64,000 bases of DNA from an uncultured Alphaproteobacteria bacterium (GTDB taxonomy: Bacteria > Pseudomonadota > Alphaproteobacteria > Rhizobiales > Aestuariivirgaceae), in contig CAVZHN010000015.1 in assembly GCA_963775095.1 (NCBI GenBank), positions 173,547-237,546 on the forward strand, written 5' to 3'. Made by a program: the position numbers and the translations under genes. The notes beneath the pieces were generated by a model. That model worked only from the letters and a program-made list of their open reading frames with translations, was not told where the DNA came from and searched no databases. Each line of letters opens with the position of its first letter. Within the stretch, counting starts at the first letter, position 1. Below, in pieces: positions 8,461 to 55,667 of this stretch.

Positions 8461-9399
8461 TTACAGCGGCTCCAGCGGGTTGAGCGAGCTGAAGGCCCGG
8501 CTGATCCAGCTCGACTGGTTTTCCAGGGGCGCCTGGCCATCGCTCGACACCAGCGTGTAGGCGTCCTTGTACCATTGGCTGTCCGGGAAATTGTGCCCGA
8601 GGACGGCAGCCGCGGTCTGCGCCTCCGAAGTAACTCCCAGCGCCATGTAACCCTCTGCGAGACGATACAGCGCTTCCGGCACCTGTGCCGTGGTCTGGTA
8701 GTCGGTGACGACGGTCTTGAACCGGTTAATACCTGAAAGGTATGAGCCGTGGTTCAGATAATAGCGGCCAACGTCCATTTCCTTGGCAGCGAGGTGATCG
8801 CGGGCCAATTGCGCGCGCTGCGAAGCATCGGCAGCATAGGGACTGTCTGGAAAACGCCGCTGCATTTCTTCGAGGCTTTCCAGGGCTTGCCGCGTGCGCG
8901 TCTGGTCGCGCTGCACATCCTTTATCTGTTCGTAGTTCGACAATGCCACCAGATAATACGCATACGGAGCATCCTTGCCCGCCGGATGCAGCGTGATGTA
9001 GCGGTTGGCGGCATTGATCGAGTCGTCATAGTCGTTGCGCTGATAGAAGGCATAGGCCTGCATGACGATCGATTTCGTAGCCCACTTCGAATAGGGATAC
9101 TGTCGCTCTACTTCGGAAAAGTTCTTGGCCGCCGACTTGTACGACCCCGACTGCAAGTCAGCGAGCCCGCGATTGTAAAGCGTCGCCACCGGATCAGTCT
9201 GATTGGCGGCAATCATTTCCGGCGTAAGCGCATTGCCCTGGGAATCGGTCGTCGCCGTCGCCGCCGATGTTGAGGTTTCGCTACCGCCGTCAAGCAGGTT
9301 GGACATCTTCGAGCAGCCGCCGAGTGCCAGGCAAAAACATGCCATTACACCCAAGGCGCGCAGCCTTTTTGCCTGACCAGCCATTGCCGTTATCAACAC
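8461..9399 (-). CDS. bamD: Outer membrane protein assembly lipoprotein BamD (ComL)
   Basis: Lipobox LALGGC, TPR repeats, FPDSPYA, HLAAKEMDVGRYY, ALYRLAEGYMALG; conserved position before recN; start may be 9384. Confidence 0.95.
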   Translation of the reverse strand: MLITAMAGQAKRLRALGVMACFCLALGGCSKMSNLLDGGSETSTSAATATTDSQGNALTPEMIAANQTDPVATLYNRGLADLQSGSYKSAAKNFSEVERQYPYSKWATKSIVMQAYAFYQRNDYDDSINAANRYITLHPAGKDAPYAYYLVALSNYEQIKDVQRDQTRTRQALESLEEMQRRFPDSPYAADASQRAQLARDHLAAKEMDVGRYYLNHGSYLSGINRFKTVVTDYQTTAQVPEALYRLAEGYMALGVTSEAQTAAAVLGHNFPDSQWYKDAYTLVSSDGQAPLENQSSWISRAFSSLNPLEPL

Positions 9400-46634: not shown

Positions 46635-47684
46635 CTAAAGCTTTGCCGTGTGGCGGTCGAAATCCGCCTTTGCCCGGCCCCACACACCATCATCCAGTTT
46701 GCCGAGTGCCAAGAGCGACGGCAAGAGCTGGGCGGCAAAATCCTCGCTCGCCTCGATGGGAAGGAGCGACGGCAGATTGTCGATGGCCATCACGTCGAGC
46801 GGCGGCGTGCCATGGACGCGCAGCGCCGGATGCTCCCAGTCGGTGACGCGATCATAGACCTTGATGGGCGAGAAATCCGAAGTGGGATCGCAGGCGATGT
46901 CGCCAATGACCGTGAGCTTGCGCATCTGGGTTTTGGCGGCAGCCGGCACGAACACCGGGCAGCCGGGGCTGGCCAGAATGCAGTTGAGGAAGATCTCATG
47001 GTCGAGAATCTCCGGGAACGGTCCTCCACCAGCCGTTTCCGCCATATCCCACCGCGTCGTCTCGACGTTAAGGGCCGCGCACAGGTCGTGCGCCCCGGTG
47101 CCGACCCGGCCGAGCGCGCCGATGATCATGGCCCGCGGCCGCGGCAGGTCGCGGAACTCCGAAGTGAGGCTTTCGACCAGCGCATGCCGGTCCCTGTAGC
47201 GCGCAATCGCCCCGGCAATGGTGCCGCGCTGCTGCGCCGCCCAGCACAGGAGCGAAACCGCAGCACCGGCAAACCCCGCCCAATAGCCGAAGGCGGCAAC
47301 CCGGCGGCCCTGCTCGTTCACCAGATACTCGATGTCATAGAGGGCACCACGACCGGCCTTGAAGCGCTTGAGCAGAATCTGCCCCGAAGGCTGACCCTTG
47401 AAGGCATGGCCGAACATGATGTGGCGATGGATGAGCGGCGTGCCATCCTCGGGCAATTCCTTGAGGCCGAAGATCAGCGCATCCCGGGGCGCCGAGGTCC
47501 AGGAATTTTCGGGCGCGATGGCGCAGCCGGTTTTCCTGTAGCCGTCAATGGCAATGGCCCTGACCGAACTTTCCTCGACCGTCACCGTGATCCCGGCCTT
47601 CATCAGCGCCGCAACGCCGTCGGGCGTCACCCCCACGCGCTCTTCATGGGCCCGCTGCTCGGCCCTGACCCACAGATGTGTCAT
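46635..47684 (-). CDS. Saccharopine dehydrogenase, lysine-forming / lysine-ketoglutarate reductase (Lys1-like)
   Basis: HLWVRAE..AHEER, IFGLKELPE, FGHAFKGQ, LYDIEYL, IGALGRVG, DIACDP, IDNLPSLLP.EAS. Confidence 0.92.
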   Translation of the reverse strand: MTHLWVRAEQRAHEERVGVTPDGVAALMKAGITVTVEESSVRAIAIDGYRKTGCAIAPENSWTSAPRDALIFGLKELPEDGTPLIHRHIMFGHAFKGQPSGQILLKRFKAGRGALYDIEYLVNEQGRRVAAFGYWAGFAGAAVSLLCWAAQQRGTIAGAIARYRDRHALVESLTSEFRDLPRPRAMIIGALGRVGTGAHDLCAALNVETTRWDMAETAGGGPFPEILDHEIFLNCILASPGCPVFVPAAAKTQMRKLTVIGDIACDPTSDFSPIKVYDRVTDWEHPALRVHGTPPLDVMAIDNLPSLLPIEASEDFAAQLLPSLLALGKLDDGVWGRAKADFDRHTAKL

Positions 47685-48300
47685 GATTCGGATCCTGTCT
47701 TACCGTGCCTGCGGATTGCACAACCACGCGGGTGCCGATCTGCACCTGATCGTAGAGGTGCACGATGTCGTAGTTCAACATGCCGAAGCAGCCGTTGGTG
47801 GCCTTCTTGCCCACGAGCTTCGGGTCGTGCGTGCCATGGATGCGGAAAATCGTGTCGACGCCGTTCTGGTAGAGATAGATCGCCCGCGCCCCCATCGGGT
47901 TCTTGGGGCCGCCCGGCATGCCGTTCTTGTATTGCACCATGTCGGGGCGCGCCGCGATATGCTCGGGCGTCGGCGTCCAGATGGGCCACTTCGCCATCTT
48001 GCCGATCTCGGTCACCCCCGTCCACGTTTTGCTGTCATGGCCGACGGCGATGCCATAACGCGTCGCCATGCCATTGCCCTGCACGAGATAGAGAAACCGC
48101 TTCTTAGGGATCACAACGACGGTGCCAGCGGGTTCCGAAGTCTCGAACTTGTCCTCGCGGCGCCGGTATTTGTATTCAACCTTCTTGGCTTCCTTTTCCG
48201 AAACCGGAAACAGCTCAGAGTCCTGCGCGAATGCGGCAGGTGTTCCGGCCAGGGCGGCCAACCCGGTGAGCAGCGAACGGCGGGAAATGAGGACAGTCAT
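47644..48300 (-). CDS. L,D-transpeptidase (ErfK/SrfK, YkuD domain), Tat-exported
   Basis: SRRSLL signal; GGPKNPMGARA, RIHGT, ATNGCFGM. Confidence 0.93.
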   Translation of the reverse strand: MTVLISRRSLLTGLAALAGTPAAFAQDSELFPVSEKEAKKVEYKYRRREDKFETSEPAGTVVVIPKKRFLYLVQGNGMATRYGIAVGHDSKTWTGVTEIGKMAKWPIWTPTPEHIAARPDMVQYKNGMPGGPKNPMGARAIYLYQNGVDTIFRIHGTHDPKLVGKKATNGCFGMLNYDIVHLYDQVQIGTRVVVQSAGTVRQDPNHDTSVGQGRAAGP

Positions 48301-48389
48301 ATGAGTCTCCGGATGGGCAATGGCGGGATGATACCGGAGACGGGAGCGGCGCGCAAATCCGCTCGGCGACTGCCCCACTCCCCGATACT

Positions 48390-48484: not shown

Positions 48485-48528
48485 GGTTGTTGGGAAGCGT
48501 TACTCAGCGTCTTTCGCGTACTTTCGCC

Positions 48529-48690
48529 TCATTCTCCTGCGACATTTCCACAAACGACTTCTCCTGTCAGCAACTTGCGCAATTCCGGCAAATCACGCGG
48601 CGGCGCTTCCAGGGCGAGTTGAAACCGCTCCCACTGTTCGGCGTTCAGGTAGATCACCCGTTTTTCTTCAAATTCCGTTGCGTCATCCAT
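48529..48690 (-). CDS. DUF1778 (TacA-like) antitoxin C-terminal-only protein or fragment, 53 aa
   Basis: Manual translation MDDATEFEEKRVIYLNAEQWERFQLALEAPPRDLPELRKLL...; below the ORF-track cutoff. Confidence 0.6.
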   Translation of the reverse strand: MDDATEFEEKRVIYLNAEQWERFQLALEAPPRDLPELRKLLTGEVVCGNVAGE

Positions 48691-48701
48691 GGCCAAACGT
48701 T

Positions 48702-49063
48702 ATGACACAGGAACAAGAACGCGTCGAGACGGCCTCAATGCAAGCTTCTCCAACATACCACCGTTGGCTCCGCCAACATCTTCGCCGACATCGGCCTTCC
48801 CAATGCCGAGGAGCATCTGATCAAGGCGCAGCTGGTGGTGAAGATCGACACTCTGATGAAAGCCCGCAAACTCAAGCAGTGCTGACGCCGCCAAGCTGTT
48901 TGGCGTCAAGCAACCCGACATCTCTAAGATGCTGCACGGCGATTTCCGCCAATTCTCCGTCGAACGCCTGATGCGGTTTCTGGTGGCGCTTGGGCAGGAT
49001 GTGGAGATTGTGGTGAAGCCACAGAAGGTGAAGGGAGAGGCGGCGGCGCTAAGGGTAGCGTGA
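48702..49063 (+). CDS. XRE/HigA-like HTH antitoxin; indels at about 48755 and 48880
   Basis: GSANIFADIGLPNAEEHLIKAQL...AAKLFGVKQPDISKML.G.FRQFSVERLMRFLVALGQDVEIVV. Confidence 0.85.
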
Positions 49064-49178
49064 TGAATTATGAGACACACAAGGCAACATTGCCGATGAA
49101 GAGTTCCCCAGCATGCCCCATGCGGTTCAGGTGCGGCAAGCGGAATTTATTCGCGCTAAATTACCGAAGGGTTAACTC

Positions 49179-49930
49179 ATGACTAAAGGCAGTATCCACG
49201 AAAAACTTCCCAGACGTCGTAAAGGATCTTGCCCAAGCACTATCAGAACAGCAACGAAGTGGCAAACCGTATGTGGTTTCTCTGTTTTGGCATCACTATC
49301 CTTGTGATCGCAAATCTCAATCCAGCTAGAAATAGCAACTCGATTGACTTTCTGGGTGTAACACTGACACAAGAGATTCATCTGGCAGCAGCAATAGCAC
49401 TGTTGCTCGAACTTCGCCATTCTATGGCTAGCGAAGGCTCGAATCACAACGTTTAAATTGGGACGACATATCGCGAACTTGTTGATCCGCAAGGTACTCA
49501 ACGAGTCTGAACACATACTAGCCAATTCTACTTCAATGAAAGCTGCTGCGTTCTATCTGCTAAAGTCAAACTACAGCCGAATTCACCCAATATTCCACCA
49601 CATCGATCCGGACGGAAGTCAAAGCCGCTACACGCTAATTAGAGGCTCATAGACATTGCATACTCTGCTGTTCCATCGGGTAGCGAATAATACTCTCAGT
49701 GCATAATGGTTAACTGGCTTATCTAAACAGCGCCAATGGCGGTCCAGTGAATGGGTGACTGTGGTGTTACTAGGCAATTACAGGACTGTTTTCCGCTTTT
49801 CAACGTGCGTCCTCTGTTACTACGCATTAGTACGGACTCGATCTTCCGGAAACTTGAAGGCCTATCACACGAGTTTGACAATGACTTCCTGTTACTTGCG
49901 AATTGCTGGCACTTGGGCATTTCGCTTCCC
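49179..49930 (+). pseudogene. AT-richer foreign segment with a broken putative membrane-protein gene
   Basis: Visible drop in GC; short hydrophobic ORF pieces (49229-49456, 49458-49652) that appear to continue across frames. Confidence 0.4.
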
Positions 49931-51588
49931 TCACCGCGCAAACTGCTTGTACTTGATCCGCTTCGGCATCACGCTGTCTTCGCCCAGCCTGCGCTTCTTG
50001 TCTTCCTCGTAGTCCTGGAAATTCCCTTCAAACCATTCGACGTGGCTGTCGCCTTCGAAGGCCAGAATGTGCGTCGCCAATCGGTCCAGGAACATGCGGT
50101 CGTGGCTGATGATGACGGCGCAGCCGGCGAAATCTTCGAACGCCTCTTCGAGCGCCGCCAGGGTTTCGGTGTCGAGGTCGTTGGTCGGTTCGTCTAACAG
50201 CAAGACATTGGCACCGCTCTTCAGCATCTTGGCCAAGTGCACGCGATTGCGCTGGCCGCCCGACAGCGTGCCGACCTTCTGCTGCTGGTCGCCGCCCTTG
50301 AAATTGAAGGCGCCGGTATAGGCGCGGGAGTTCATCTCGCGCTTGCCGAGATAGAGCACGTCGTTGCCGCCGGAAATCTCCTGCCACACCGTCTTGTCGG
50401 GATCGAGCGAGTCGCGGCTTTGGTCGACGTAGCCCATCTGCACGCTCTCGCCGAACGAGATGGTGCCCGCGTCGGGAAGCTCCACACCCGTCAGCATACG
50501 GAACAATGTGGTTTTGCCCGCGCCATTGGGCCCGATGATGCCGACGATACCGCCGGGCGGCAGCTTGAAACTGAGATCGTCGATCAGCAGCCGGTCGCCA
50601 TAGGCCTTGCTCAGGCCCTCGACGGTGATGACATTGTCGCCCAAGCGCTCGCCCGGCGGAATGATGATCTGCGCCGTCGTTGACTTGAGGCGCTCGTCAT
50701 TGGCCTTGATCAGTTCGTCATAGGCCTTGAAGCGCGCCTTGGACTTGGCCTGCCGCGCCTTGGGCGATGAAGCGATCCACTCGCTCTCGCGCTCGATGAC
50801 TTTCTGCCGTGCTGCGTCCTCGCGCGATTCCTGGGAAAAACGCTTGGCCTTGGCCTTGAGATAGGCGGAATAATTGCCCTCGTAGGGAATGCCGCGGCCA
50901 CGGTCGAGTTCCAGAATCCAGCCCGTCACATTGTCGAGGAAGTAGCGGTCGTGGGTAACGATGAGAATCGAACCCGGATAATCGCGCAAGTGATGTTCAA
51001 GCCAGTTCACCGATTTCGGCGTCCGAGATGGTTGGTCGGCTCGTCGAGCAGCAGGAGATCGGGTTTGCGCAGCAGAAGCTGGGTGAGCGCTACCCGGCGC
51101 TTTTCGCCGCCCGACAGATTGTCGATTGACGCATCCCCCGGCGGGCAGCGCATGGCGTCCATCGCCTGCTCCACCTGGGCCTCGAGGTCCCACAGGTTCT
51201 GGGCGTCGATCACGTCCTGGAGCTTCGCCGCCTTGTCGGCGTTCTCCTCATTGTAGTCCATCATCAGCGCGTTGTAGTCGTCGAGGATCGCCTTCTTGGC
51301 GGCGACCCCTTCCATGACGTTGCCCATGACATCGAGTGCGGGATCAAGCTCCGGCTCCTGCTGCAGGTAGCCGCAGGTCGCACCTTCGGCGAGCCACGCC
51401 TCGCCGTTCCATTCCGTGTCGAGCCCCGCCATGATGCGCAGCAACGTCGACTTGCCCGAGCCGTTGGGGCCCAACACACCGATCTTGGCGTCCGGGTAGA
51501 ACGACAGGTGGATATTCTCAAGAACCTTTTTGCCACCGGCATAGGCCTTGGTGAGGCCTTGCATGTGATAGATGAACTGGCGCGCCAT
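49931..51588 (-). CDS. ettA: Energy-dependent translational throttle ABC-F protein; extra bases at about 51015 and 51024
   Basis: MARQFIYHM, two ABC domains (GPNGSGKS / LSGGEKRR; GPNGAGKT / LSGGQRNR), HLDAES restored by removing two bases, [16 protein letters not shown]. Confidence 0.96.
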
Positions 51589-51625: not shown

Positions 51626-52462
51626 CTAGCCCGCCCGTTTCACAAGGGCAATGCCGTTACGAGTGCTCCCCGGCCGAGCCGGCCTGTGCTGTTCCTCGGC
51701 CATGATCTTCTTCTGGTATCGGCCCTGCACGATATCGACGATGAGCAGCGCTCCCACCACGAAGTAGAACGTGGTTTTGGCCATCGGTTCCACCGGGAAA
51801 CCGAAGAACGCGAGATGCGCGATGTGGCCGCCTTCGGCCAGCAGCATGACGCCCACCAGCAGCAGCACGAACAGGCCAAGCACCTCATACATCCGGTTCT
51901 TCTGCAGGAAGGCCGCCACGTGTTCGGCCAGCGCCACCATGAGAATGCCGGAGAGCACGATGGCCGTGGCCATGACGATGAAGTTGTTGGTGAGCGCCAC
52001 CGCCGACAACACCGTGTCGAACGAAAACACGATGTTCATCACCATGATCCAGAACAGGGCGCGGGCGACGGTGGAATGTTTCGGCCCCGACCCCTCCTCA
52101 TGCTCAAGATCGTGCACCGCCAGCATGTGGAAGATTTCCTTGAGTGCGGTGTGAATGAGAAATGCCCCGCCCGCCAGCACGATCAGGCTGTGGCCGCTGA
52201 CGCTGGCCTCAAACACCGGCAGGTGCACGCTGAACAGCGGCGACTGGAAGGCGCTGATCAATTGCAGCACCACGAACAGCAGCGCGATGCGCAGCAGGAT
52301 GGCGAAGATCATGCCGACGCGGCGCACATATTTCTGCTGCGCCGGGGCGACCTTCTTCGCCTCGATGGAAATATAGAGAAGATTGTCGAAACCCAGCACC
52401 GTTTCCAGCGCCGTGAGGACCATCAGGGTGAAGAGATTCTCGATTGTGAAGAGGTCGGTCAT
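51626..52462 (-). CDS. TerC-family integral membrane protein
   Basis: LETVLGFDNLLYI, FSFDTVLSAV, LLLVGVMLLAEG. Confidence 0.93.
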   Translation of the reverse strand: MTDLFTIENLFTLMVLTALETVLGFDNLLYISIEAKKVAPAQQKYVRRVGMIFAILLRIALLFVVLQLISAFQSPLFSVHLPVFEASVSGHSLIVLAGGAFLIHTALKEIFHMLAVHDLEHEEGSGPKHSTVARALFWIMVMNIVFSFDTVLSAVALTNNFIVMATAIVLSGILMVALAEHVAAFLQKNRMYEVLGLFVLLLVGVMLLAEGGHIAHLAFFGFPVEPMAKTTFYFVVGALLIVDIVQGRYQKKIMAEEQHRPARPGSTRNGIALVKRAG

Positions 52463-52956
52463 GATTCTGGCGGATTAGCGCCCTTTCGCTCCATAAACAA
52501 CCACAACGCGACAGCGCCGGTACAGACCGCGGCGACCGCCAGCGCCACGGCGATGCCTCCGGTCTCCGGGCTGACCGGCAACATGCCGGTGAGCCCGGCG
52601 AATAGCATCACGCAACTGGCGGTCACGAACACCGCCACCAGCGCCGCCAGCTTGATCCCGGTTCCGCTTGACCGGCTCATCGTCACCACGCTCCACAATG
52701 CCGCCGCCAGAAACGGCGGGCCGCCGACCACCGCCACGGTGGTCAGGGTCACATAGGCGCCATCCATGCTGCCGAGAAAGAACAGACTGCAGCCGCCAGT
52801 GAACAGGGCGGTAAGGATGGCCGCTGCTGCGCCCAATACGCGAAGTCCCGAATGCCGGGGCTTGCCCTCGCCTGCCCGCCGCCGTTCGTGGCGCTCGAGC
52901 AGCCACCACAGCACGGCGATGAGCAGCAGCGGGCCAAGGAAGACAATGCTATACAT
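52459..52956 (-). CDS. Membrane protein with internal LFTGGC motif (paralog 3)
   Basis: 165 aa, about five hydrophobic segments, Cys56 in ILTALFTGGC; overlaps both neighbours. Confidence 0.8.
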   Translation of the reverse strand: MYSIVFLGPLLLIAVLWWLLERHERRRAGEGKPRHSGLRVLGAAAAILTALFTGGCSLFFLGSMDGAYVTLTTVAVVGGPPFLAAALWSVVTMSRSSGTGIKLAALVAVFVTASCVMLFAGLTGMLPVSPETGGIAVALAVAAVCTGAVALWLFMERKGANPPES

Positions 52957-53201
52957 CAGGGCTTCGCCTCCGGTTCCGCCTTTGCCTTGCGTTTTTCGCG
53001 GTCAATCCGCCACCCCTTGCGCAGCATGAACCAGCCCGCCACCAGCGGCAGCACGCCGAAGGGCAGCCAGACGCCCAGCATCAATCCCGGCTCCTCCACC
53101 AGCACTTCCACGCCATTGTACACTGTTGCCAGAAACACCAGCGTGCAGCCGCCGCCGAACAGCATCAGCAGCGCCCCCAGGATCATGAGCAGCACGTGCA
53201 T
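52956..53201 (-). CDS. Small membrane protein with LFGGGC motif (paralog 2)
   Basis: 81 aa, hydrophobic leader ending in Cys19, further TM, basic tail. Confidence 0.8.
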   Translation of the reverse strand: MHVLLMILGALLMLFGGGCTLVFLATVYNGVEVLVEEPGLMLGVWLPFGVLPLVAGWFMLRKGWRIDREKRKAKAEPEAKP

Positions 53202-53564
53202 CTAGAGGTTTCGCCAGTAAACGAAGGTGAAGGCCCCCTTGAGGGCGAAAAGCAGGACCGGCAAGCCGATGAGCAGGAAATCCTCGGTGTTGTTGAGGCC
53301 GACCTGGGCGATCAGTGGCAGCGACATCGCCACGACCAGGGCATCGAGGATGACCAGGGTGAGGAAAGCGCCCTTCCGCACCTTCATCTTCCCCCACAGG
53401 GCGCCGATCACCACCACGTTGAGAAGCGCCAGCCCGCCGGGGATAACGGCGAGCGGCGCCGCGAAAATCGCACCCCCGATGCCGCTGCCCGCGAAAATCG
53501 TCAGCGCGCAGCCACCAGCGAACAGCACGATGATGGCGCACAGGATGGTGAGAAGGATTTTCAT
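53202..53564 (-). CDS. Small membrane protein with LFAGGC motif (paralog 1)
   Basis: 120 aa, MK plus hydrophobic leader ending in Cys19, further TM segments; ATGA overlap with the radical SAM stop. Confidence 0.8.
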   Translation of the reverse strand: MKILLTILCAIIVLFAGGCALTIFAGSGIGGAIFAAPLAVIPGGLALLNVVVIGALWGKMKVRKGAFLTLVILDALVVAMSLPLIAQVGLNNTEDFLLIGLPVLLFALKGAFTFVYWRNL

Positions 53565-54973
53565 GCCGCGCCCTTCGACCGCGCCATGCGCTTGCGTGCC
53601 GCTTCGTCGCGGTAGAACAGGTTGTAGGTTTCGAACGGAATGATCTGCCCCGCCGGTGTCACGAAATGGATGCAGGACCGCTTGACGCGGCTCAAACAGA
53701 AATTATGCGCGTCCATGAACTCGACGATGGCAATGCGGAAGATGTTTTCATAACCGAAACCCTCCGGCACCGGCACTTCCGGCAGGCAGCACAGGAGCGC
53801 GTTGAGCTTTTCCGGATTGTTGCATTCCGCCGTGGCCAGCGAGAAGAAATTGAGCACCTGCTTGTGCAGGTCCGGGAACTTCTCGAAGGTGATGGCGTTG
53901 GGCAGCGCCTCTACCAGCATGTCTTTCGGAAAGAACGAAGTGATCGGCGCGATCCTGTCGCCCTTCCGCAGCGCATAGCCGATGGCGATCGATTCCGGAT
54001 TGCACGGCAAGGGAATGATGTCGCCCTCGCCGAACGGGGTTTTCGCTGCGATGATCTTGCGGCGAATGTCGGAGAGCACGATGCGGTCGGTGCCCGGGTC
54101 GAAATTCTCGTTCCGCCCCGCATCCTGGATCGGCTGGAAGGTGATGCCGCGCACGCATTTCCATTGGAGCGCATAGTTGATGATGTCGCCCAACTCGTCG
54201 TCATTCACCCCGGCCTTCACCACGACAACCAGCGTTGTCGAAATCGATTCCCGTTCAAGGGCTTCCAGCGCTTCCCTGCGAATCCGCGTGAGGTCGGCGC
54301 CGCGCAAGGTCTTGTGAACCGAAGCCCTTAGCGAGTCGAATTGCAGGTAGACTTCAAAACCCGGAGTCAAAGTCTTGAGCTGACTCACGAATTCCGGGTC
54401 CTGGGCGATGCGGATGCCGTTGGTGTTGAGCATCAAATGCCGTATCGGCCGGGCCTTGGCGGCTTTCAGAATGTCGATGATCTGCGGATGAATGGTCGGC
54501 TCGCCACCGGAAATTTGCAAAAGGTCAGGCTCGCCCTCGCTGGCCACCAGCGCATCCATCATGCGCTCGATTTCGGCCAAGGGCCGGTGCGCCGTGTGGG
54601 CCGTCGAACTGCCGGCAAAACACACCGGGCACGTCAGGTTGCAGGCCTCGTTGATGTCGATGAGGGCGAGGCAGGAATGCTGTTCATGGTCCGGGCACAG
54701 CCCGCAATCATAGGGACAGCCCTCCTCGGTACGGGTCTGCGGCGCCAGAGGCCGGTCGCCGGGCTTCAGGTAGTCGTGGCACAACTTGTAGTAGTTGATG
54801 TCGGTCGAAACCAGGCTCTTCTCCACACCATGGGTGCGGCAGCGCTTCTGGTACCACACCTTGCCGTCGTCGAAGATGATCTTGGCCGGAACCAGCGCCA
54901 GGCACTGCGAGCACAGTGACGTCGTTTGCCCATAGAACACATAGGGCGCGATCTTACGGATGGGGGCGTTCAC
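53561..54973 (-). CDS. Radical SAM protein, Tes/GDGT-MAS (MJ0619)-like family
   Basis: CSQC...CRTH, CPYDCGLCPDH, CNLTCPVCFA (CxxxCxxC), SGGEPT, NTNG, YLQFD, C-terminal CC and RSCIH. Confidence 0.88.
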   Translation of the reverse strand: MNAPIRKIAPYVFYGQTTSLCSQCLALVPAKIIFDDGKVWYQKRCRTHGVEKSLVSTDINYYKLCHDYLKPGDRPLAPQTRTEEGCPYDCGLCPDHEQHSCLALIDINEACNLTCPVCFAGSSTAHTAHRPLAEIERMMDALVASEGEPDLLQISGGEPTIHPQIIDILKAAKARPIRHLMLNTNGIRIAQDPEFVSQLKTLTPGFEVYLQFDSLRASVHKTLRGADLTRIRREALEALERESISTTLVVVVKAGVNDDELGDIINYALQWKCVRGITFQPIQDAGRNENFDPGTDRIVLSDIRRKIIAAKTPFGEGDIIPLPCNPESIAIGYALRKGDRIAPITSFFPKDMLVEALPNAITFEKFPDLHKQVLNFFSLATAECNNPEKLNALLCCLPEVPVPEGFGYENIFRIAIVEFMDAHNFCLSRVKRSCIHFVTPAGQIIPFETYNLFYRDEAARKRMARSKGAA

Positions 54974-55667
54974 GGGGTCCTCCGATCATCGCAACCGAAT
55001 AAATCACGAGTCCCGCGCAAATGAAATGGAAGAGATTGAAGGGCCCGAGAACCGTGCCATAGGGCTTGAGGAATTCCCACAGGAAGCGCTGGGCGCCGTA
55101 GTAACCGGCCAGCAGATAGAAGCCGTTGCTCATGAAGAATCGCTGCCGGCGGCCAAGCATGATGAGAGAAAAAACCAGGAACGCCGCCATGGCGAAGCTT
55201 TCATAAAGCTGCACCGGATGGCGGGGAATGCCATCGCCGAAATCATAGCCCCACGGAAGCGCGGTGGCGATGCCGTGGGTCTGGTCGTCGAGCCCTGACA
55301 GGAAGCAACCCCAGCGGCCTACCATCACGCTTGTCGCAAACGCCGGCACGAAAATAAGCCCCGTCGACCCTTTGATGCCGGAATACCGCTTAAAGACTTC
55401 GATTGCCACAATCGCCCCGGCCAGCGCCCCCACGATACTGCGGCCCACACCCGGCGCACCCGTGAGCCACAGGTTGAGGCTCCCTGCCCCGAACCCGCCA
55501 GCCACCGCCCCAAGGATCAGCGCCAAGGCGTAGGCATAGCCTGCGCTTTCAATCCGTGCTGAAGCTTCCGCCAGCCGCCAGCGATAGGCGGCAAATGTCA
55601 TGGCCATCGCTGCCGCCGCCGAAAACAGATCAAAGAGTGTGTGGACGATCATGACAACAGGTATCAC
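54954..55667 (-). CDS. Divergent prolipoprotein diacylglyceryl transferase (Lgt) family protein
   Basis: GRWGCF, LPWG, RHPVQLYES, RFLWEF; GRSIVGAL replaces the canonical GMSFHGG. Confidence 0.88.
   Translation of the reverse strand: MIPVVMIVHTLFDLFSAAAAMAMTFAAYRWRLAEASARIESAGYAYALALILGAVAGGFGAGSLNLWLTGAPGVGRSIVGALAGAIVAIEVFKRYSGIKGSTGLIFVPAFATSVMVGRWGCFLSGLDDQTHGIATALPWGYDFGDGIPRHPVQLYESFAMAAFLVFSLIMLGRRQRFFMSNGFYLLAGYYGAQRFLWEFLKPYGTVLGPFNLFHFICAGLVIYSVAMIGGPRERPHP

Follow-up and report, generated by a model that had tools for sequence, protein, structure and literature searches.

The stretch of DNA analyzed here (hereafter the window) covers 64,000 nucleotides of contig CAVZHN010000015.1, from an uncultured alphaproteobacterium of the family Aestuariivirgaceae. 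On its minus strand, a row of genes encodes a paralogue of the prolipoprotein diacylglyceryl transferase Lgt, a radical S-adenosylmethionine (SAM) enzyme related to Tes and GDGT-MAS, and three small membrane proteins, designated sA, sB and sC, which share an LF[AGT]GGC motif. A sequence-only reading of this locus had proposed that the motif is a lipobox-like signal and that the three proteins, as unusual polytopic lipoproteins, are the substrates of the adjacent Lgt paralogue. We report here that sA, sB and sC are paralogues within a large, widespread and unannotated family of small membrane hairpin proteins, that this family has an invariant cysteine within a G-x-C motif and is linked in genomes to both enzymes, and that a novel form of protein lipidation may be proposed for the resulting three-gene cassette. 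The genes and codons concerned are the following.

54954..55667, minus strand: Lgt-family paralogue, 237 aa, predicted membrane transferase with seven transmembrane (TM) helices in an N-out/C-in topology; PF01790
53561..54973, minus strand: Tes/GDGT-MAS-like radical SAM enzyme, 470 aa, soluble; Radical_SAM and Zn_ribbon_HMPTM domains
53202..53564, minus strand: sA, member of the G-x-C family, 120 aa, four predicted TM helices, MK n-region, Cys19
53508..53510, minus strand: TGC codon of sA Cys19, the family-invariant cysteine
52956..53201, minus strand: sB, member of the G-x-C family, 81 aa, plain helical hairpin with a basic C-terminal tail, Cys19
53145..53147, minus strand: TGC codon of sB Cys19
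52459..52956, minus strand: sC, member of the G-x-C family, 165 aa, extra N-terminal helix, basic loop, hairpin with Cys56, C-terminal extension
52789..52791, minus strand: TGC codon of sC Cys56
51626..52462, minus strand: TerC-family membrane protein; PF03741, E 2.6e-38

These genes are tightly packed. The stop codon of the radical SAM gene and the start of sA overlap as ATGA, the start of sB abuts the stop of sA, sC shares one base with sB, and the start of terC overlaps the stop of sC, again as ATGA; for the Lgt paralogue, the database gene call begins at residue 6 (window 55652). The three tandem open reading frames (ORFs), their motif strings and the positions of their cysteines had been read correctly from the letters, as verified with the ORF list and a codon check. 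In the six-frame translation of the 64-kb window, LF[AGT]GGC occurs exactly three times, always in sA, sB or sC, for a chance expectation of 0.005 (mean of 200 mononucleotide shuffles). Outside the motif, the three proteins are indeed dissimilar, as had been claimed: the alignment of sA with sB is confined to residues 1–25 (E 5e-6), between sA and sC there is a weak alignment around the motif (E 0.011), and the pairwise comparison of sB with sC gave no significant alignment. It is also confirmed that they remain hydrophobic past the cysteine.

The G-x-C family

Homologues of sA retrieved from databases number 15, at 88–37% identity, every one of them labelled 'hypothetical'. By profile search against 1.84 billion representatives, the family amounts to 1083 members at the 50%-identity representative level (E <= 1e-3), with lengths of 68–204 aa among the best 150 of the 1083 representatives, and its members are made up of TM helices only. 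No Pfam or NCBIfam family was found above threshold for the small proteins, the scattered weak matches including holin-X and STM3941.

Two alignments, both having sB as first sequence and hence as numbering reference, define the conserved residues. In alignment A2 (56 locus-derived members, mean column identity 15%), the cysteine is the sole invariant column and Gly(-2) is at least 90% conserved. Alignment A4 draws on 52 database homologues as an independent set and has just two invariant columns, G17 and C19, with G9, L11, G49, G56 and G63 being near-invariant, the last three forming a heptad on helix 2. The cysteine is moreover kept in 145 of the 146 best representatives; its conservation among homologues had been set in advance as a check on the proposal of lipidation, and both alignments and the representatives agree on it. 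The single exception, P0270, has Ala for Cys (SGLASVALF) and may be a degenerate paralogue of a multi-copy locus.

Around the cysteine, the local pattern reads L(-8) x x L(-5) [F/L](-4) [S/A/T/C/G](-3) G(-2) [G/L/A](-1) C [S/T/A/G/V] L. Gly is present at -2 in 108 of 114 locus members, where position -1 is G in 74, L in 23 and A in 9, and the 146 representatives include 96 with GLC, 25 with GGC, 14 with GAC and five with GTC. Position -1 is thus Gly in the window's clade, in contrast with Leu in most of the family, and a single locus may carry G, L, T, S and A at this position side by side.

Within the family, the window's sC is unusually long, being ~60 aa longer than its orthologues, which measure ~100–115 aa and end in ...WWLAMRRK. 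Its C-terminal extension (52459–52640) is lineage-specific and adds two predicted TM helices. No similarity between this extension and the hairpin part of sC was detected, and a search for an internal duplication or repeat in sC revealed none.

A three-gene cassette conserved across genomes

A scan of one genome per species yielded at least 591 relatives of the radical SAM enzyme, and the best 80 loci were kept for locus analyses. These loci span Hyphomicrobiales, Planctomycetota, Binatia, Rhodobacterales, Reyranella, Dongia, Micropepsaceae and Caulobacterales, the closest relatives of the window being Aestuariivirga (Hyphomicrobiales), at 84–87%. An Lgt-like gene adjoins the radical SAM gene in essentially all 80 loci. 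A hidden Markov model (HMM) derived from the motif-bearing ORFs, which sA matches, places one or more small ORFs immediately behind the radical SAM gene, typically overlapping its stop codon, in 72 of the 80 loci; such a search for the family near Tes-like genes had also been suggested as a check on the sequence-only reading. A relaxed six-frame scan recovers small ORFs in nearly all of the remaining loci, so that, of the loci with downstream sequence, L046 and L071 are the only ones without such an ORF. An HMM-independent test for G-x-C after 12 uncharged residues, covering 450 nt from the radical SAM stop codon onward in the forward frames, was positive in 60 of 76 loci, as compared with 2 of 76 for the reverse frames and 10 of 964 for control windows. 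In the reverse search, three small proteins from the database, picked for their long contigs, were all encoded right after PF01790 and Zn_ribbon_HMPTM/Radical_SAM genes, in loci with one to four tandem small genes. The tie of the family to both the Lgt paralogue and the Tes-like enzyme is therefore supported from both search directions.

The number of small genes per locus varies from one to six. In Planctomycetota (L019 and L022), the order is radical SAM gene, small G-x-C gene and Lgt-like gene, instead of the Lgt-like gene, radical SAM gene and small genes found elsewhere; hence, the trio survives rearrangement. Neighbor clustering identified no further gene conserved across loci. TerC, ABC-F, histidine kinase, DUF1289/MOSC and thioredoxin genes were considered as additional members of the cassette and proved to be lineage-specific synteny only, and a function in defence was set aside, PADLOC having returned only generic radical SAM similarity to viperins. 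The cassette is carried by several cultured bacteria, including Caulobacter sp. BK020, Brevundimonas sp. FT23042, Reyranella soli NBRC 108950 and Dongia sedimenti R-7, as well as Roseovarius conchicola and Alitabrizicola rongguiensis.

Some variation in the surroundings of the cassette was also seen. In two Micropepsaceae-like loci, L081 (2027–6064) and L083 (398–5497), DUF1289 and MOSC-domain genes precede the cassette in the same direction, and the cassette has four tandem small genes followed by an autotransporter; L083 has an additional PF05875 ceramidase-family gene by the cassette. Among the 80 loci, DUF1289/MOSC turn up in no more than 2.

The Lgt paralogue and the radical SAM enzyme

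The Lgt paralogue matches PF01790 with 60.3 bits (E 2.3e-16, cutoff 24.9), residues 67–228 corresponding to positions 75–238 of the 240 in the profile. It reaches 29.9 bits against TIGR00544 (cutoff 118.9), and the other NCBIfam lgt equivalogs are also far below their cutoffs. A single-sequence search of the PDB gave no match for this protein; a profile of 24 diverse members matches E. coli Lgt (5AZB) with an E of 1.6e-3. E. coli residues R143, Y235, R239, E243 and R246 correspond to R118, Y190, R194, E198 and K201 of the paralogue, and the E. coli stretch RHPSQLYE corresponds to RHPVQLYE. R118, Y190, R194 and E198 are invariant in the 24 diverse and in 30 close homologues, and K201 and RHPVQLYE are invariant as well. 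In the E. coli enzyme, R143, Y235, R239 and E243 form a buried network around the diacylglycerol part of phosphatidylglycerol, whose mutation is not tolerated, and the active site faces the periplasm as a patch below the level of the interface (PMC4728403). The periplasmic head domain of E. coli Lgt is missing from the paralogue. Its AlphaFold (AF2) model has seven long helices, with a predicted local distance difference test score (pLDDT) of 81.7 and a predicted template modeling score (pTM) of 0.83, and the charge distribution fits an N-out/C-in topology. The invariant residues R118, C121, D128, R149-H150, Y190, R194, E198 and K201 are predicted to lie at the periplasmic helix ends and in an acidic periplasmic loop.

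The radical SAM enzyme matches Radical_SAM (PF04055, E 4.7e-21), Zn_ribbon_HMPTM (PF23545, E 7e-18) and Fer4_12. Among the NCBIfam models, TrsS gives 304 bits (cutoff 490) and Tes 283.7 bits (cutoff 450), both scores being below cutoff. The best solved structure is that of GDGT-MAS (7TOL, E 4.9e-66), with ~40% identity across the aligned core; the alignment takes in the Zn-ribbon, the GCPYDCGLCP auxiliary-cluster motif, CxxxCxxC and the C-terminal FMDAxNF...CIH, leaving out the central region (residues 325–409). Fifteen cysteines are at least 99% conserved in 72 relatives (21, 24, 45, 86, 90, 93, 101, 111, 115, 118, 273, 324, 395, 396 and 434), and the C111/C115/C118 and C86/C90/C93/C101 motifs align with GDGT-MAS. 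This set of cysteines is compatible with several iron–sulfur clusters and a mononuclear site, as the latter enzyme reportedly has. To judge from these scores, the cassette enzyme is a Tes homologue and not an equivalog. An identity with TrsS, a related but distinct family, was rejected on the score below cutoff.

Membrane topology

In 114 members of the family, the uncharged run from the last charged residue (or the N-terminus) to the cysteine has a median of 16.5 residues with an interquartile range (IQR) of 16–19, the run past the cysteine being looser (median 10, IQR 8–15). Net charges are +1.3 (before the cysteine), -1.1 (loop) and +1.5 (tail). The AF2 model of sB is a helical hairpin (H2-29 and H38-75) of medium confidence (pLDDT 72). 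These features imply that the core of the family is an inner-membrane helical hairpin with an N-in/C-in topology and the loop outside. Owing to the tight spacing and the charge distribution, the cysteine would reside in the outer leaflet, in the periplasmic half of helix 1, its depth in the membrane being an estimate from the sequence and the medium-confidence model. In members of the sC type, the hairpin is preceded by a further N-out helix and a loop of strongly basic character; the internal position of the motif in sC, which had been noted as a peculiarity of this protein, recurs with the same arrangement in its orthologues. Judged from charge bias and helix assignment, the periplasmic half of the membrane would harbor both the family cysteine and the residues conserved in the Lgt paralogue, so that the two probably lie on the same side, which fits the earlier proposal.

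A putative protein lipidation pathway

We propose that the small proteins could be dedicated cysteine acceptors, or clients, of the Lgt paralogue. The latter would move a glycerolipid from a phosphatidylglycerol-type donor to the cysteine thiol by S-alkylation in the periplasmic leaflet, and the cytoplasmic Tes-like enzyme would tailor the lipid tails via radical carbon–carbon coupling. Such tailoring might precede the transfer, with the donor lipid as substrate in the inner leaflet, in which case no topological problem would arise, or it might follow, once the lipid is bound to the protein. A small proteolipid would result, bearing an unusual lipid, for example macrocyclic or membrane-spanning. 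To us, the odds are even that the Lgt paralogue has its acceptors in the small proteins and that the lipid is tailored by the radical SAM enzyme; the parts of this pathway that we infer are the covalent attachment of a lipid, the nature of this lipid, the sequence of the steps, any cleavage by LspA and the physiological role.

Several points weigh against such a pathway. The first concerns the acceptor site of the transferase. In E. coli Lgt, H103 (HGGL motif) is an essential residue and has been proposed as the lipobox-binding site (PMC4728403). Its counterpart in the paralogue is a variable V/L/I/E/A position and that of N146 (signature GRLGNFING) is the invariant Cys121 (GRWGCF), the alignment stretch over H103 and N146 being weak when taken alone (6.2 bits) and located inside the Pfam match. 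With H103 not retained and Cys standing in the place of N146, the acceptor or the chemistry could differ from that of Lgt; Cys121 provides another invariant thiol in the presumed active site, one that might link to the client cysteine in a covalent or disulfide intermediate. In favor of the pathway, the alignment shows the donor-side residues of Lgt to be retained and its acceptor motif to be lost in the paralogue, as would be expected for a new acceptor motif.

The second point is the depth of the family cysteine, which lies ~63% along the hydrophobic stretch, inside a continuous helix of the sB model. It appears somewhat deeper than a classical lipobox cysteine, though at a similar distance from the anchor, because more hydrophobic sequence comes after it. 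As to whether it is buried mid-membrane, a question raised together with the sequence-only reading, the cysteine would belong to the periplasmic half of the membrane but sit deeper than in a classical signal peptide. The coupling of the two enzymatic steps is also speculative, the radical SAM enzyme being cytoplasmic and the cysteine being placed in the outer leaflet. In addition, a Foldseek search of the PDB with the AF2 model of the Lgt paralogue gave no match at E <= 0.001 and left 5AZB outside the top 50, a result that we regard as uninformative. L046 and L071 have an Lgt-like/radical SAM pair with no detectable G-x-C ORF in the available flanks, the L046 contig ending 108 nt upstream of the Lgt-like gene. 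Finally, as regards transcripts, the only runs found to contain the region are DNA metagenomes from freshwater sediment and drinking water.

Alternative explanations

Another explanation is that a free lipid, for example membrane-spanning or macrocyclic, is produced or remodelled by the Lgt paralogue together with the Tes-like enzyme, the small proteins acting as non-covalent scaffolds, membrane adaptors or regulators and their cysteine having a structural or redox role. The general assumption for bacterial Tes homologues is that they produce membrane-spanning lipids (PMC8941075), and the loss of H103 is compatible with a non-protein acceptor. The near-invariant glycine heptad of the second TM helix (G49, G56 and G63) suggests a helix-packing interface, and the cysteine is fairly deep in its helix. 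However, an archaeal Tes is active in a heterologous host without such partners, and a fixed subunit is not expected to occur as one to six divergent copies with just Gly and Cys conserved. The cytoplasm-exposed parts able to contact the radical SAM enzyme are, moreover, short and unconserved, and an invariant lone cysteine in the leaflet of an Lgt-type active site is most simply understood as a nucleophile. Clients fit better than subunits in view of the variable copy number, the extreme divergence outside two residues and the tolerance at -1, and we consider it unlikely that the system produces a free lipid with the small proteins as mere partners.

The radical SAM enzyme could also modify the small proteins directly, in the manner of enzymes acting on RiPPs (peptides that the ribosome makes and that are modified after translation), for example by installing a thioether between the cysteine sulfur and a carbon of a lipid tail or another residue, the Lgt paralogue being then an accessory. 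Short, tandem and divergent genes right after a radical SAM gene, often with stop/start overlaps, resemble the layout of a precursor and its maturase, and the mechanism proposed for Tes involves a carbon–sulfur bonded intermediate on the auxiliary cluster (PMC13459092). Nevertheless, neither a RiPP recognition element (RRE) nor a SPASM peptide-binding domain is among the Pfam matches of the enzyme, so that a lipid substrate fits better than a peptide, and over the aligned core it is ~40% identical to an enzyme coupling lipid tails. The positive-inside rule puts the cysteine in the outer leaflet, away from the cytoplasmic enzyme. No protease or exporter is conserved in the cassette, and the universally linked Lgt paralogue would be left unexplained. 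Such a direct modification is hence quite improbable.

Could the small proteins simply be ordinary lipoproteins of the housekeeping Lgt/LspA/Lnt machinery, their place beside the Lgt paralogue being incidental to their maturation? With a PROSITE-style lipoprotein pattern, consisting of a core and a full rule, all three window proteins match the core, and sA alone passes the full rule, sB failing for having no K/R in its first seven residues and sC because Cys56 stands behind an extra TM helix. BamD of the same genome also uses LGGC. Indeed, BamD/YfiO is encoded by the ORF 8461–9384 on the minus strand (PF13525, E 2e-53), and its signal peptide, MAGQAKRLRALGVMACFCLALGGC, ends in ...CFCLALGGC with the lipobox LALGGC, such that the earlier statement of an LGGC lipobox in this protein is accurate. 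Across the family, however, the core is matched at the family cysteine by 33 of 260 database members (13%) and the full rule by 9 of 260, Leu being present at -1 in 96 of the 146 representatives. The canonical lipobox has G/A/S at -1 (PMC12462473). The window motif itself has G at -1, G at -2 and A/G/T at -3, with Leu/Phe displaced to -4/-5.

Because Leu prevails at -1 and few members match the pattern, the G-x-C motif is, as far as sequence tells, no lipobox in the canonical sense. Likewise, its likeness to the LGGC of BamD is peculiar to the window's clade, since the family-wide motif is G-x-C with mostly Leu at -1. GGC does end a genuine lipobox in this organism, as BamD confirms, but the motif of the family is G-x-C and mostly GLC. 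There is, furthermore, no exported soluble domain, the cysteine of sC-type members is behind an additional TM helix, and the linkage to the Lgt paralogue is near-obligate, all of which makes maturation as ordinary lipoproteins very improbable. Finally, it is hardly credible that the small proteins merely travel with the enzyme pair as independent membrane proteins, such as holin-like, toxin-like or stress peptides, for, although a hairpin with a basic tail is a common design and 8 of 56 members match Phage_holin_3_6 (PF07332, E up to 0.01, all below the gathering threshold; sB 15.7 bits for a cutoff of 28.4, with no lysis context), no lysis, toxin–antitoxin or defence genes are conserved nearby, PADLOC found no system, and the near-obligate, cross-phylum linkage and the invariant cysteine would be unexplained.

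Considered as a whole, the sequence-only reading has gained an invariant cysteine, a linkage to both enzymes and a probable periplasmic-side placement in its favor, and has to give up the canonical lipobox.

Implications

Joining the acceptor role of the small proteins, the transfer by the Lgt paralogue and the tailoring by the radical SAM enzyme, the cassette would represent an undescribed protein-lipidation pathway of hundreds of mostly aerobic bacterial species. In this pathway, the Lgt paralogue would lipidate an intramembrane cysteine of tiny hairpin proteins by means of a G-x-C motif that would go unrecognized by the housekeeping machinery, and the radical SAM enzyme would couple the tails through carbon–carbon bonds to give a protein-bound macrocyclic or membrane-spanning lipid. 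In this complete form, we put the proposal forward tentatively, as one that we doubt more than we trust.

If the acceptor role holds, protein lipidation of the Lgt type would comprise a second system, having an acceptor motif and clients of its own, and tetraether-synthase-type radical chemistry would be tied for the first time to a protein-bound lipid. A concrete function, directly testable in the cultured carriers, can thus be suggested for more than 1000 unannotated small proteins and likewise for genes annotated 'prolipoprotein diacylglyceryl transferase', at least 3228 clusters. The proposal also bears on lipid biomarkers. Tes homologues in Acidobacteria and 'various Proteobacteria' have been considered possible makers of brGDGTs, the branched forms of glycerol dialkyl glycerol tetraethers, and those of Proteobacteria and Planctomycetes genomic indicators of brGDGT producers (PMC8941075). 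The Tes-like clade described here may need to be excluded from such counts, for it is obligately coupled to an Lgt paralogue and to cysteine-bearing proteins; if the proposal is true, many 'bacterial Tes homologues' counted as markers of brGDGT producers have another function.

Other features of the window

The TerC-family gene is a lineage-specific neighbor outside the conserved core. It is found downstream of the cassette in Hyphomicrobiales relatives only (L001–L016), some of which have two TerC-like genes. Beyond it, the gene of an EttA-like ABC-F ATPase (49931–51588, minus strand) is split into two overlapping ORFs, 51007–51588 and 49931–51193. On an intact orthologue of 551 aa (L001), the first ORF aligns up to residue 188 and the second from ~191, which indicates a frameshift near 51020, reflecting either a pseudogene or an assembly error. 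Between ORF 47644–48378 and the ABC-F gene, a patch of low GC content (48500–50000; GC 0.48–0.55 as compared with ~0.60–0.67 around) contains short ORFs only and may be an inserted or intergenic island.

Comparison with known systems

In the literature on Lgt or diacylglyceryl transferase combined with radical SAM enzymes, tetraethers or Tes homologues, we found no description of this cassette, and a 2026 review of lipid-modifying radical SAM enzymes does not mention Lgt or lipoproteins (PMC13459092). The closest enzymatic relative of the proposed transfer step is the Lgt/LspA/Lnt pathway. Both have a PF01790 enzyme with the R143/Y235/R239/E243 network and a predicted action in the periplasmic leaflet, together with acceptors (here, candidates) having a cytoplasmic anchor that is basic or N-terminal, 16–19 residues of hydrophobic helix and then an invariant cysteine after small residues. 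In contrast to the lipobox [LVI][ASTVI][GAS]C, the cassette proteins have G-x-C with Leu common at -1; they remain hydrophobic past the cysteine, without an exported polar domain, and their cysteine is sometimes located behind an extra TM helix. Their enzyme has neither H103 of HGGL nor the head domain and has Cys in place of N146. Moreover, no dedicated signal peptidase or N-acyltransferase accompanies the cassette, whose obligate partner gene is that of the radical SAM enzyme.

With Tes/GDGT-MAS (MJ0619; 7TOL), the radical SAM enzyme has in common the Zn-ribbon, GCPYDCGLCP, CxxxCxxC and FMDAxNF...CIH. It differs by scores below the Tes and TrsS equivalog cutoffs, by the unaligned residues 325–409, by its bacterial hosts with ester lipids, and by the pairing with an Lgt paralogue and G-x-C proteins, which has not been described for Tes. 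As in RiPP clusters with radical SAM enzymes, a radical SAM gene has beside it one to six tandem genes that are short and divergent and share a single conserved motif; unlike these clusters, the cassette has no RRE or SPASM domain, no leader and core, no protease and no exporter, its enzyme belongs to a lipid-modifying family, and its small proteins are integral membrane hairpins.

Conceptually, the cassette comes nearest to the sorting signals of the MYXO-CTERM type, for which an 'Lgt-like acyltransferase' has been postulated and which also have an invariant cysteine (PMC11980579). In both cases, this cysteine is found by a TM helix and a basic tail in a non-canonical context, and Lgt-type lipidation is proposed. 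The MYXO-CTERM signals are, however, C-terminal tags on large secreted proteins, with a dedicated protease, an inverted topology and no cognate transferase identified, whereas the cassette combines tiny, wholly membrane-embedded proteins with a dedicated Lgt paralogue encoded beside them.

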